From assembly GCA_902778125.1 (NCBI GenBank), contig CACYWH010000001.1, positions 12,880-76,879 of the forward strand: a DNA stretch of 64,000 nt, in the 5' to 3' direction. Below are positions 2,397 to 8,300 of the stretch, piece after piece. The DNA comes from an uncultured Erysipelotrichaceae bacterium. Lineage in GTDB: Bacteria; Bacillota_I; Bacilli_A; RF39; UBA660. Position 1 is the first letter of the stretch. Each line of letters starts with the position of its first letter. The position numbers were made by a program.

Positions 2397-5300
2397 TAGG
2401 AGGTTTGTTATGGAAGAAGAAAATATAGATATAAATGAATCTAATAATGAAGAAAATTTAGAAAATTCTACTATTGAAACAAACGTTGAAGATGATTTAA
2501 ATTTGAATGTTGAAAGTAATTTTAGTGGTTATTTTCACGAAAGAGATAGATTAAATCATAATAATATAGTAAGAGAAGTTGAATCATCATTTTTAGAATA
2601 TTCAATGAGTGTTATTAAATCGCGTGCTCTTCCTGATTTAAGAGATGGTTTAAAACCAGTACATAGAAGAATACTTTGGTCAATGTATGAATCTGGTTAT
2701 ACGCCTGATAAACCTCATAGAAAAAGTGCTAAAACTGTCGGAGAAGTTATGGGTAATTATCACCCACATGGAGATTCATCTATTTATGAGGCAATGGTTC
2801 GTTTAGCACAAGACTTTAATCAAAGATATATGTTAATAGATGGCCATGGAAACTTTGGTAATATTGAAGGTGACGGTGCAGCAGCAATGCGTTATACCGA
2901 ATCAAGGCTTGCAAAAATTTCATTGGAATTATTAAGAGATATAAATAAAGATACAGTCGACATGGATGATAACTTTGATAATACTAGAAAAGAGCCAAAG
3001 GTATTACCTTCAAGATTTCCTAACGTACTAGTTAATGGTTCTATGGGAATTGCTGTTGGTATGGCTACTAATATTCCACCGCATAATTTAGGTGAGGTAA
3101 TAGATGGATGCGTTGCATATATCGACAATCCTGATATAGATGTTCTTGGATTAATGCAACATATCAAAGGACCAGATTTTCCTACAGGTGGTATAATCCT
3201 TGGAAGCTCAGGTATTAAAAAGGCATATGAAACAGGAAGAGGATCAATTACTATCAGAGGTAAAGCTGAGATAATTGAAAGTGATGGACATAATAGTATA
3301 GTATTTACTGAAGTTCCATATGGTGTTAATACAATGGAACTTAAAAATAAAGTGGCTGAACTAGTTCATACAAAGGTTATTGATGGTATATCTGACTATC
3401 ATACTGATTTAAAAGATGGAGTAAAAATTACAATTACATTGAAAAAAGATGCTAATCCACAAGTAGTTTTAAATAATCTATATAAGCATACTGCATTCCA
3501 GTCAACTTATGGAATTATATTCTTAATGTTAGATGGTTTAACTCCTAGAACTTTAGGATTAAAAGATATTATTTCTAAATATATTGATCATCAAAAAGAA
3601 GTAATAGTAAGAAGAACTAAATTTGATTTAATTAAGGATGAAAAAAGAGTTCATATCTTAGAAGGATACAAAATAGCATTAGATAATATTGATGAAGTAG
3701 TTAAAATTATAAGAAATGCTAAAACTGATGATGAGGCCAAAACAAAATTAATTGAAAAATTTGGTTTAGATACTATTCAAGCTGAGGCTATTTTAGAATT
3801 AAAATTAAGACGTCTAACTGGATTAGAAAGAGATAAAATAGAATCAGAACTAGCAGCATTACTTGCCGAAATCGAAGAATTAAAATCTATTTTAGCAAGT
3901 GAGGAAAAAGTACTTCAAATAATTAAGAAAGAAATGCTAGAAATTAAAGATAAATATAGTGATGACAGACGTACAAAAATTGATAATACAGCTGCCGAAT
4001 ATATTGAAGATGAATCTCTTATTCCACAAGAAGAAATAATTGTTACAATTACTAATAAAAATTATATTAAGAGAATAAGCAAGGATACTTATAAAGTTCA
4101 ACATAGAGGCGGAGTTGGAATTAAAGGAATGCAGACTACCGATGAAGATGTTGTTGAACAGTTAATCTCATTAAATACACATGATAATATTCTATTCTTT
4201 AGTAATAAAGGAAAAGTATATAGATTAAAAGGATATAAAATACCTGAATATTCTCGTACTGCTAAAGGATTACCAATTGTAAATTTATTATCATTAGAAA
4301 AAGATGAAAAAATTAATACAATGATTAAGATAAATGATAATGAGACGTACAAATGTTTGTTATTTGCGACAAAAAATGGAATTGTAAAAAGAACATTGAT
4401 AAGTGAATTTGACAACATTAGGCAAAGTGGAAAAATAGCTATAACACTTAAAGAGGACGATGAATTGATATCTGTTAAAAAGACTACAGGCGAAGATCAA
4501 GTTCTAATGTGCTCATCGAATGGACGTATGGCAAGATTCAATGAATCTGAAATAAGAATAATGGGTAGAACTGCTTCTGGAGTTAGAGGTATTAATTTAA
4601 CAAATGATAAGTGTGTCGGAATGGAAATATCTGAACCTGGTAAATTGCTATTAGTTGTTACTGAAAATGGATATGGTAAGAAAACTGCTATAGAGGAATA
4701 CAGAGAAACCAAGAGAGGTAGCAAAGGTGTTAAAACATTAAATATTTCTGAAAAGAATGGTAAAATTGTTAGTTTTAAATCAACAGACAATGATAAAGAT
4801 TTAATGATTATAACTACTGAAGGTATAATTATAAGAATTGATATTAATTCAATTTCTGAAATGGGTAGAGTTACTAAAGGAGTTAGGTTAATAAATTTAA
4901 AAGATAATAATAAAGTAGCGTCTATTTCAATTTTAGATAAGGAAGAAAATGAGGATGAATAATCCTCTTTTTTTATAAAATTATTTCCCGGGAAATAATT
5001 TTAATATTATTTTCTATTAATAACTATAAAAACATAAATGTTCCACGTGAAACATCATACGTATCAATTTTAAAAAATTAATAAAATAACTCTGATCAAT
5101 AATTATTAAATTAAATCAATGTTCCACGTGGAACATTGATTTATAATAAAATGCTCATTGACAAATAATTTTATAAATATATAAAATATGCAATTCATTA
5201 AATAAGAAAAATTATTTCCCGGGAAATAATTTTGCCAGTTACCAGATTAAAATTTACTTAATGTTCCACGTGGAACATTAATATTTAAATTATCTATCAT

Positions 5301-8300
5301 TAAATAATTAAAAAACTATAAATAATATATGCTATATTACTTTCTAAAAAACTTAACGTTACGCTTTATTATAAAATAACAATATTTTTTAATTAAAAAA
5401 TAAACAAAAAATTTTAATATTAAATTGTTACAATGTTCCACGTGGAACATTGTTTTATAATAAAATATTTATTAGCAAATAGCAATTATAATTATATAAA
5501 ATATACTATCCATTAAATAGGTAAAATTATTTCCCGGGAAATAATTTTAATATTATTTTCTATTAATAACTATAAAAACATAAATGTTCCACGTGAAACA
5601 TATATAATCAAAGCAAACTAATTATAAATTGAATATGGTTATATTAAATAAATATTATAATTATAAAATAATAAATTTATTGTTATAAATATATAAATAG
5701 TTGCTCCAAGCAACAATAATTATTATAAAATATATTTATCATAATAAAATAACTACTAGATAATTATTTAAAAATCAATGTTCCACGTGAAACATTATAA
5801 AAATATTATAATAATAAATTAATTTTATATTATAATTAAATATTATCAATTAGGATGTATCTAGTACAATACGACTTTTCAATAATAAAAAAATTGACAA
5901 TTAATAATATGCATAATACAATGTTCCACGTGAAACATTGTATTAAAAATATTTCTTTATAATTATATAGGATCATTAATACTTGAAAAAATATAATTAA
6001 TATAATATAATTAATTTGTGCAACGGTAACGTTATGAACCAGGTCAGAATCGGAAGATAGCAGCCTTAAATAATTTTGCCGTGTGCACATTTATTTTATA
6101 AAAAAATACGAATAGGTGTTTGCATGGATACAAAAATTATTAATACATTAAAAAAGTTAAATAGAAAAGCAATAAAAAACGGTGATGTTCCGGTATCTTG
6201 TGTTGTTTTAAAGGATAATAAAATTATATCAAGAGCATATAATCAAAGAGTGTACAAAAAAAATCCTTTATATCATGCGGAAATATTAGCTATAATGAAA
6301 GCCTCAAAAAAACTTGGAACCTGGAATCTTAGTGACTGCGAATTATATTGTACACTTTTACCATGTAAAATGTGTAAGGAAGCAATTAATAATGCACATA
6401 TTAAAAAAATATATTATATTTTGGATAATAATAAAGAAATAAATAGTAAGTTAGAAATTAATAAAATAAATGTTAACAATTATGAATATTTTGAAAAAGA
6501 ATTAAAAACTTTTTTTGTAGATAAAAGATAGTACTATGTTACAAATTTTGATATAATTAATAAAGGAGGTTTACTATGTCATATATATCATTGTATAGAA
6601 AATACAGACCTAAGAAATTTTCGGATGTAGTTGGTCAAGAAGTAGTTATAAAGATACTAAAAAACAGTATTGTTAATAATAAAATAGGTCATGCATATAT
6701 ATTTAGTGGACCTAGGGGCACTGGAAAAACTAGTGTAGCAAAAATATTTTCAAAAGCAGTTAATTGCTTATCAAACGATAGTGGAGATTTGTGTGGAAAA
6801 TGTGAAATTTGTAATATGAATTTAGAGGATGAAATAGATATTATAGAAATAGATGCGGCTAGTAATAATGGCGTTGATGAAATAAGAGAAATAAGAAACA
6901 ATGTAAAATTATTACCATCTCACTTAAAATATAAAGTATATATTATAGATGAAGTACATATGTTGTCTACAAGTGCATTTAATGCGTTATTAAAAACTTT
7001 AGAAGAACCTCCTCAAAATATTATTTTTATTTTAGCTACAACTGAATTTAATAAAATACCAGCAACTGTTGTATCAAGATGTCAAAAATTTGATTTTAAA
7101 AAATTAACTAAGAAACAAATTTTTGATAGGCTTAATTATATTTTAGAAAATGAAAAAAGGAACTTAAATTCTGATGTTGTAGATTTAATAGCGCAAATAA
7201 GCGACGGTGGATTAAGAGACGCAATAAATCTATTAGATCAAGTATTATCACTAGAAAAAAAAGAAATATCAAAAGATGATGTTTATTCATTAATTGGCGA
7301 TTTGAGCGAAGATAGAATATTTGATTTATTAAAATATATTGTAAACAGTGATATAAAATCTGTTTTAAGTTTTATAGATGATGTATATAACAATGGAAAA
7401 AATCTTGTTAATATATGTGAAAGATTACAAATAATTATTCGTAATATAATAATATACAATAATACAAACGGATATTTCGATGAAACATATGAAAAAAAAT
7501 TGCAAGAATTTAGTAAAATTAATATAAATAATATATTAGAGTTATCGAACGAATTGTTTAATTTAATAAATAATTTACGAAAAACTAATAACCAAAAAGT
7601 TATTATGGAAATATATTGTTTAAAAATGTCATTAATCTTTGATAATAAAGAAAAGAATATTATAACAGAAGAAAATGAGAATGATAAAAAAATAATTACA
7701 TCCAAAGATGATAAAAAAGAAGCAGAAGATAATATAAATGATGAAATAAAAAAAATAAGAATAAATAATTCTTTAGCAGGTGCAAATAAACAATTAAAAT
7801 CGGAGTTTGTGAATAAATACAAAGAAATAAATGAATATGTATCTAACAAAGAATATAATTCTATTGCAAATTTATTATTAAAAGCAGTACCAGAAATTGT
7901 ATCAGATAAAAATATAATTTTTTCTTTTAAAAATAATTTTGATGTAATATTGTTTGATAAAAATGAAGAATTAATACAAAAATTACTAGAAAAAATATAT
8001 AATAAAAAATATTTAGTAGTTGCATTAACTAGTGATGATTGCGAAAAAATAAAGAAGGAATATATAAATAATATTAAAAAAGGAATAAAATACGAATATA
8101 TTGAAGAAAAGGCGTCTAAGAAAAAGAAGAAAAGCAAGGATAAATTGGAAGAAACTGCTGAAGATATATTCGGTGATGAAATTATAAAAGTAGATTGAAA
8201 GGAATGATAAATATGAATATGCAAGCTATAATGGCACAAGCTAGAAAATTACAAGGAGATTTAGAAAAAACTACAAAAGAAATTGAAGGAACTACATTTA

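Follow-up and report, generated by a model that had tools for sequence, protein, structure and literature searches.

ParB and Noc are the best-studied DNA clamps gated by cytidine triphosphate (CTP), and they are thought to operate separately, ParB from parS sites at the replication origin and Noc from Noc-binding sites (NBS) along the chromosome arms. In Bacillus subtilis, the parS sites are scattered over the origin-proximal region and lie mostly inside genes. Here we analyze a 64-kb stretch of DNA from an uncultured Erysipelotrichaceae bacterium (contig CACYWH010000001.1; "the window" hereafter denotes this whole stretch), in which both kinds of site are predicted within the spacer between gyrA and ffs, the gene for the small signal recognition particle (SRP) RNA. 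The initial annotation had proposed that this spacer co-loads ParB and a membrane-tethering Noc at the origin or, alternatively, that one paralog reads both sites. Judged from sequence, the spacer is probably a centromere-like pad that would co-load a ParB encoded elsewhere in the genome and a Noc without a membrane anchor. As the initial annotation had supposed, our literature search yielded no published account of a compact pad of parS and NBS, and it yielded no description of an anchor-less Noc family.

parS and NBS sites in the gyrA-ffs spacer

The window was searched with parS and NBS patterns at 0 to 2 mismatches, and the numbers expected by chance were taken from shuffled sequence. This pattern search returned seven predicted parS sites, each an exact 16-bp match to TGTTNCACGTGAAACA. 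Four have the form TGTTCCACGTGAAACA and share a single orientation (plus strand, with the GAAACA half rightward): parS 1 (5039 to 5054), parS 5 (5585 to 5600), parS 6 (5779 to 5794), and parS 7 (5922 to 5937). The other three have the fully palindromic form TGTTCCACGTGGAACA: parS 2 (5120 to 5135, within a 30-bp palindrome), parS 3 (5262 to 5277), and parS 4 (5434 to 5449). The predicted NBS core, ATTTCCCGGGAAAT, occurs in three exact copies, and all three are embedded in perfect palindromes of 26 to 28 bp, AAAATTATTTCCCGGGAAATAATTTT. NBS 1 (core 4983 to 4996) lies within a 28-bp palindrome (4976 to 5003), NBS 2 (core 5214 to 5227) lies within a 26-bp palindrome (5208 to 5233), and NBS 3 (core 5529 to 5542) occupies 5522 to 5549. 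At up to 2 mismatches, there was no parS elsewhere in the 64-kb window (0.03 expected) and no NBS elsewhere in it (0.12 expected). The initial annotation had listed seven parS sites and three perfect NBS within palindromes of at least 26 bp, and every one of these sites was recovered as an exact match.

The start-to-start distances from each NBS to the next parS are 56, 48, and 56 bp, which agrees with the earlier statement that a parS follows every NBS at 48 to 57 bp. Part of this regularity, however, reflects recent internal duplication. An 80-nt unit (4976 to 5055) recurs with 100% identity at 5522 to 5601, where it begins with NBS 3, so that two of the three NBS-parS pairs derive from one recent duplication and are not independent.

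The position of the pad relative to the origin was read from leftward-extending contigs with the same GyrA, on which the gene order is rpmH, dnaA, dnaN, a comK-like gene, recF, gyrB, gyrA, and the pad. The pad lies 7.5 to 8.9 kb downstream of dnaA and begins about 7.5 kb past the end of that gene (contigs L001 to L004). It is the sole parS cluster from -10 to +64 kb, which upholds the earlier description of a compact origin-proximal array of both site types, and on 22-kb contigs spanning oriC it is the sole location of parS or NBS. Over most of the window, the GC skew is positive, which is what the right replichore should show. The host, with a genome of about 24% GC, belongs to a low-GC lineage of RF39-type Bacilli from gut and rumen.

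Conservation was assessed in 28 species-level relatives, that is, genomes whose locus covers the spacer, found via DnaA (68 to 87% identity). They carry the labels of metagenome-assembled genomes (MAGs) of Bacilli, Mollicutes, Mycoplasmatota, or Tenericutes bacterium, and they also include Clostridium sp. CAG:524 and CAG:1000; the family CAG-1000 is placed in the order RF39 in GTDB (PMC8035907). All 28 genomes have parS and at least one exact NBS in the gyrA-ffs spacer, with the exception that each parS match in L040 carries one mismatch. From the gyrA stop, the typical order is a parS (+6 to +23), an NBS (+32 to +55), and a second parS (+60 to +109), and in nearly all 28 genomes an NBS lies +13 to +76 bp past the stop (+72 in L033 and +76 in L021). 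The number of parS copies per pad ranges from 2 to 10. In the most distant relatives (L036, L038, and L040), the spacer is reduced to 150 to 250 bp and holds the triad only or an NBS with two or three parS, while expanded pads have 9 or 10 parS (L026, L029, and L043) or seven NBS and two parS (L033). When the first ~120 bp after gyrA were aligned, the site cores alone were conserved, and the linkers varied in sequence and length.

The arrangement extends beyond these genomes. JGI/ENA metagenome contigs were scanned with an NBS required within 4 to 34 bp of a parS, and at least 120 contigs were found, nearly all of those listed having a GC content of 19 to 31%. Among the listed contigs, 81 have the 3' end of gyrA directly adjoining the pad, and their GyrA is 45 to 92% identical. 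Since the pad stands beside GyrA sequences of such low identity, it is a trait of a broad lineage and not of one species. The view that selection maintains both site types throughout the lineage is supported by these comparisons.

Variation among strains of the same species was also recorded. Position 5131 in parS 2 is polymorphic (G/A), and this change toggles the site between the two canonical forms. Strain contig L005 lacks 81 bp (aligned as deletions of 40 and 41 bp) around a GC-containing hairpin in the middle of the pad, GTTGCTCCAAGCAAC (5700 to 5714; -6.3 kcal/mol, z -3.5).

Spacing was examined in the DnaA-selected set of loci, which is unbiased in this respect. In this set, 65 to 68% of NBS centers lie within 60 bp of a parS center, and the typical spacing between neighboring parS is 160 bp. 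For phasing, a second set of 259 neighboring NBS-parS pairs was used, each with a unique sequence between the two sites. The center-to-center distances in these pairs peak at 26, 36 to 37, 47 to 49, 58, 68, and 77 to 78 bp. The best period is 10.4 to 10.8 bp (R = 0.31 to 0.33), and none of 2,000 controls jittered by ±6 bp reached this value of R. With a phase of about 5 bp, the sites of a pair are separated by half-integral helical turns. The three pairs of the window, with center distances of 57, 49, and 57 bp, sit on these peaks.

The two site types form discrete classes. Across 656 kb of related loci (36 loci), a search under a general parS/NBS scaffold returned 127 pure parS and 46 pure NBS, and these 656 kb contained no mixed half-sites and no G1/C6 or A1/A6 hybrids, save one site with a single base changed. 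The genomic distributions of the classes also differ. In the related loci, parS was never seen outside pads, and about 580 kb contained at least 18 NBS outside them, at distances of 1.8 to 11 kb from the gyrA stop. The dispersed NBS retain the extended consensus AAWTTATTTCCCGGGAAATAAWTT. A recurrent one lies ~2.2 to 2.8 kb past the gyrA stop, within or beside the variable part of dnaX; examples of dispersed NBS include L097 6003, L048 7172, L050 7115, L152 281, and L133 3083, among others. The parS sites are thus confined to the pad, and NBS in relatives are dispersed as in Bacillus, including inside dnaX.

Palindromy continues past the cores of both site types, by a mean of 2.65 bp for parS and 3.6 bp for NBS, versus 0.52 bp at control positions. 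The flanks of the 16-bp cores differ from site to site (tcaa/ttga, ttaa/ttaa, and acaa/ttgt), and extended palindromes in the window lie at 5112 to 5141, 5258 to 5281, 5430 to 5453, and 5916 to 5943. Candidate explanations for the extended palindromy are additional protein contacts, formation of hairpins or cruciforms, and template-switch repair.

These features raise the question of whether the palindromes are RNA or DNA hairpins, such as terminators, repetitive extragenic palindromic (REP)-like elements, or selfish repeats, that merely resemble parS and NBS. The parS palindromes do score as terminator-like hairpins (-17.8 kcal/mol for 5105 to 5150), and the extension past both cores with site-specific flanks would suit such elements. 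Both cores, however, are exact matches to two independent protein-site consensuses of 14 to 16 bp, and they are invariant, with no compensatory changes, across the genomes with GyrA 45 to 92% identical. The hairpin of the NBS is weak (-8.3 kcal/mol, z -1.5). Furthermore, gyrA has a terminator-like hairpin of its own, GAGGATGAATAATCCTC (hairpin 4951 to 4967), followed by a T-run (4951 to 4974, plus strand), so that transcription of gyrA does not depend on the NBS palindrome for its termination, and a role of the NBS as the gyrA terminator was rejected on these grounds. A structured RNA in the pad was likewise rejected, since an Rfam scan of the spacer matched the SRP RNA and no other family. 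Because the cores are invariant and a reader of the NBS type is encoded nearby, as described below, a purely structural origin of the palindromes is very unlikely.

Candidate readers of the two site classes and their coupling

The genes upstream of dnaA are, in order, rnpA, yidC, jag, trmE, gidA, gidB, and then one ParB-family gene. In the 23 related genomes (of L011 to L045) whose locus extends this far, no other ParB-family gene lies on this side of dnaA; examples of the gene are L024 2515 to 3561 and L026 803 to 2035, both on the minus strand. The best PDB matches of its product are to Noc, at 188 to 209 bits (208.6 for the top match, 7NFU), versus at most 162.7 bits for ParB. Identity by tblastn is 45 to 49% to Noc versus 40 to 44% to Spo0J, and the C-terminal end of the protein is Noc-like. 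The NCBIfam Noc model TIGR04285 gives 266 to 278 bits, below its cut-off of 315; a Spo0J sequence scores 257 bits with the same model, so this score alone cannot separate Noc from ParB.

Four residues determine the choice between the two sites, being QKKR in canonical Noc and RxxG in ParB (PMC7383237). Q173 contacts adenine 1 of the NBS, and R201 reads the C6:G-6 pair; a single lysine, at position 179 or 184, is sufficient, and R173 is invariant in parS binders (PMC7383237). In the present lineage, positions 173, 179, 184, and 201 are Q-K-N/S/V-R, with K179 replaced by R in one species, and across the wider family position 184 is N, S, T, or A, and K is absent there. The supplements of that study contain no fitness values for QKNR, QKSR, or QKAR (PMC7383237). 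On the basis of Q173, R201, and the lysine rule, the Noc-like protein was assigned to the NBS sites, and it is likely to be the NBS reader.

The same protein departs from canonical Noc at its N terminus. An N-terminal amphipathic membrane-targeting sequence is a trait of Noc (PMC4331003, PMC8429893), and both membrane binding and nucleoid occlusion depend on its 10-residue amphipathic helix (PMC8429893). Residue 1 of the Noc-like protein, however, aligns with residue 19 of Noc (7NFU), and the N terminus is acidic. The ATG has a Shine-Dalgarno-like sequence in front of it, and an in-frame stop lies 4 to 11 codons 5' of this start codon. The acidic start at residue 19 and the upstream stop indicate that the protein is made without the membrane-targeting helix. 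The membrane-tethering nucleoid occlusion factor of the initial annotation is therefore not what was found. The CTP-binding motifs are intact, with GERRYKA and ENLQR showing no variation among the aligned proteins; in Noc, R89 and N121 are needed for CTP binding (PMC8429893).

A survey of the family covered the best 150 cluster representatives (P0121 to P0270) from 1.8 billion proteins. A short N terminus, with 14 to 21 residues ahead of PNRFQPR, was present in 145 of these 150 best representatives, and a transmembrane-like segment that could serve as an alternative membrane anchor was present in none of them. QKNR occurs in 107 representatives, and the remainder have mostly QK(S/T/A)R. The proteins are 227 to 775 residues long and contain an acidic linker rich in N and P. 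The linker motif [IL][NT]P[FY]Q was considered as a family-wide trait and rejected; it occurs in 17 of the 150 and is clade specific. A homologue search with the Noc-like protein listed 120 matches, all of them ~99 to 100% identical CAG:524 sequences, and so was uninformative on paralogs. By these features, the putative family is a large uncultured Noc subfamily (Q-K-N-R, without a membrane-targeting sequence) that is absent from the alignments by which ParB and Noc specificity was defined.

The discrete site classes, their different distributions, and the residues Q173 and R201 together argue for two readers. They must be weighed against a single-reader explanation, in which ParB and Soj have been lost and the anchor-less Q-K-N-R Noc now serves the centromere in their place, binding NBS and parS alike. 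Several facts would fit this explanation. Apart from the Noc-like gene, no ParB-family gene was found near the origin, with soj-spo0J missing from their usual place beside it, and the protein departs systematically from canonical Noc (N, S, T, or A in place of the near-invariant K184, no membrane-targeting sequence, and a long acidic linker), as it does in 150 of the 150 best cluster representatives. Moreover, a chimera of ParB with the DNA-binding region of Noc was able to bind both sites in vitro (PMC7383237). In deep mutational scanning, however, R173 was invariant in parS binders and the dual-specificity variants had mostly T or S at position 201, and Q173 is unable to bond guanine 1 of parS (PMC7383237). 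A promiscuous reader should also tolerate hybrids and mixed half-sites, which the pure site classes do not contain; the parS sites are exact copies of the universal ParB consensus, and parS and NBS are distributed differently. The option that one paralog reads both sites is thus disfavored, and we consider the single-reader explanation unlikely. Slightly less likely still is its fullest form, in which there is no canonical ParB and the Q-K-N-R Noc derivative is the sole ParB-family CTP clamp, acting as a dual reader at a phased composite centromere that in some members also contains DnaA boxes. If true, it would represent a ParB/Noc protein with natural dual specificity and the return of a Noc to work at the centromere.

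To search for the parS reader, Spo0J, Noc, and Soj sequences served as tblastn queries against the window and all loci, every six-frame segment of the window was compared with a profile hidden Markov model (HMM), and Pfam annotation was read from -20 to +74 kb. The outcome of this search weighs against co-loading of two paralogs. Neither a ParB of the R173/G201 type nor Soj was found from -10 to +74 kb of dnaA in this species, to -20 kb of dnaA in Clostridium sp. CAG:524, or in ~150 related loci, with the exception of contig L137, and within the window both the tblastn and the profile HMM searches detected neither. The soj and spo0J genes do not follow the noc-like gene and are absent also from the next 10 kb in CAG:524, and the rpsF-ssb-rpsR region, as a candidate neighborhood for a relocated spo0J, gave no match in the loci examined. 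Three further observations count on the same side. First, the core of NBS 2 is changed (C>T at 5220) in four of seven other strain contigs (L004, L005, L008, and L009), so strong constraint does not act on every copy. Second, NBS lie within 60 bp of a parS only modestly more often than they would if placed at random in the pads (65% versus 48%; p ~0.01). Third, the pairs used for the phasing and adjacency figures lack phylogenetic independence, and we therefore grade the phasing as strong but not conclusive.

Because no ParB gene was found near the origin, the parS reader is hypothetical, and co-loading by two paralogs is something that we infer. The annotated proposal was upheld in part. A likely reader gene of the Noc type, with Q-K-N/S/V-R at its specificity positions, was identified, and no canonical R173/G201 ParB gene was located near the origin. 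In Staphylococcus aureus, the gene for the ParB-like protein is located far from noc, which makes a relocated parB plausible here. That protein is a second ParB-like protein alongside Noc, in an organism without ParA (PMC5540599). The exceptional contig, L137, comes from a different organism (GC 49%) and has, at 1412 to 2446, the order gidB-noc (QKQR)-1-kb spacer-soj-spo0J (R...G). Its spacer contains exact parS at 1553, 1991, and 2320, a near-exact parS at 2254, and an NBS at 2039, with an NBS-parS distance of 47 bp. A mixed pad of parS and NBS thus also exists where both canonical paralogs are encoded.

If there are two readers, they could still be uncoupled, with the NBS lying in the pad because it is the sole large noncoding stretch near the origin or because they hitchhike on duplications. 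Pads do grow by duplication of units, as in the identical 80-nt copy in the window and the tandem modules of relatives, and the modest proximity of NBS to parS and the decay of NBS 2 in some strains would be expected under this explanation. It does not account for the presence of at least one exact NBS beside parS in 28 of 28 species, including those with triad-only spacers of 150 to 250 bp, or for the helical phasing of the NBS-parS spacing, and we regard it as improbable. The universal retention of NBS by parS, together with the phasing, argues for functional coupling of the two complexes.

In the co-loading pad, the parS sites would nucleate a ParB of canonical specificity, its gene lying elsewhere in the genome; ParB would then form a closed CTP clamp and spread, and loading of SMC would presumably follow. 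The interleaved NBS would nucleate the Noc paralog encoded beside rsmG/gidB. The two kinds of dimer would sit side by side at half-integral turns, where they could interact or act as mutual roadblocks that concentrate the clamps. The anchor-less Noc would be an organizer or regulator of the origin domain and not a membrane tether. As options for the coupling, we infer mutual roadblocks, a shared platform for origin organization, and control of initiation.

The last of these options would agree with DnaA boxes in the pads of some relatives, which may point to a link with control of replication initiation. Perfect DnaA boxes have a density of 0.43/kb in pads versus 0.05/kb outside (~9-fold). In S. 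aureus, Noc restrains replication initiation, and small Noc peaks flank dnaA (PMC5540599); with the modules described below, this lends some support to the initiation-control option. The window's own pad contains no DnaA box at up to 1 mismatch.

A repeated module of 44 to 45 bp, parS-TGTGGATAA-NBS, occurs 18 times in eight loci of relatives (L051 209 to 252 and 624 to 668, with further copies, and also L049, L122, L073, and L147). In L091 (4557 to 5420), four of seven NBS are directly followed by TTGTCCACA, TTATCCAC, or TTTTCCACA.

Features surrounding the pad

The left boundary of the pad is gyrA (2410 to 4962, plus strand), an 850-amino-acid (aa) open reading frame (ORF) with Pfam domains DNA_topoisoIV and DNA_gyraseA_C. 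The right boundary is ffs (6009 to 6099, plus strand; Rfam RF00169, 58.7 bits). A promoter-like TTGAAA-17-TATAAT (5983 to 6011, plus strand), identified by consensus match only, probably serves the SRP RNA gene, as it lies just upstream of the Rfam match. A near-consensus promoter-like element, TTGACA-17-TACAAT (5894 to 5922), ends exactly at the start of parS 7.

Immediately left of the window, a gene with a ComK domain lies between dnaN and recF (L001 6426 to 6884). In CAG:524, an ORF of 490 aa without a Pfam match (L046 2346 to 3818) fills the dnaA-rpmH intergenic region, the usual site of oriC elements. Within the window, 16212 to 24300 shows a Bacillus-like sporulation synteny comprising an abrB-like gene, a yabG-type peptidase U57 gene, veg, spoVG, yabP, and divIC, and spoIIR lies left of the origin in CAG:524. 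Sporulation-associated synteny is unexpected given the MAG labels Mollicutes and Tenericutes. Farther right (35842 to 43314), five consecutive ORFs (139, 485, 527, 207, and 368 aa) have no Pfam match and may encode surface proteins; they are followed by genes for a LysM protein and then a DUF4352 protein.

Comparison with known ParB and Noc systems

The components of the pad are all of known kinds, and what is new is their composite, phased, and conserved arrangement together with the variant of Noc. Our data suggest that this lineage has long retained the loading sites of both clamps next to each other at a fixed helical phase and that its Noc has dropped the membrane anchor. The pad would thus provide a natural system for asking whether two paralogous clamps act cooperatively, obstruct one another, or use a common platform. 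It also bears on the role of a Noc that would be unable to reach the membrane and on a direct link to DnaA. The pad measures 150 bp to 1 kb, a length that permits direct study in vitro or in Escherichia coli.

Compared with Spo0J/ParB-parS of B. subtilis, the sites here have the identical 16-bp consensus and are likewise multicopy and origin proximal. Unlike the B. subtilis sites, seven of them are packed into one spacer of at most 1 kb directly after gyrA, and soj and spo0J are not at their usual locus. The NBS share with those of B. subtilis and S. aureus (PMC4331003, PMC8429893, PMC5540599) the identical core, a reader gene beside gidB, and, in relatives, dispersed sites. The reader itself has Q173, K179, and R201, the GERR and ENLQR motifs, and a Noc-like C-terminal end, as in these organisms. 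It differs from canonical Noc in starting at residue 19, in having N, S, T, or A at position 184, in its long acidic linker, and in scoring below the NCBIfam cut-off. The Noc-NBS systems of these organisms also differ from the pad in two features of the sites, as here at least one NBS is fixed within a parS cluster at phased distances and the NBS is extended to a palindrome of ~22 to 26 bp.

Two further systems are similar in part. The clustered parS of Caulobacter and Pseudomonas (PMC5815017, PMC4368675) also place several copies within a few kilobases of the origin as one loading zone, but those arrays contain parS only, in organisms without Noc, whereas here NBS and, in some relatives, DnaA boxes are interleaved. 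S. aureus resembles this lineage in that no Soj/ParA is found, noc lies by gidB, and Noc is linked to the origin and DnaA, yet no compact mixed pad has been described there (PMC5540599).

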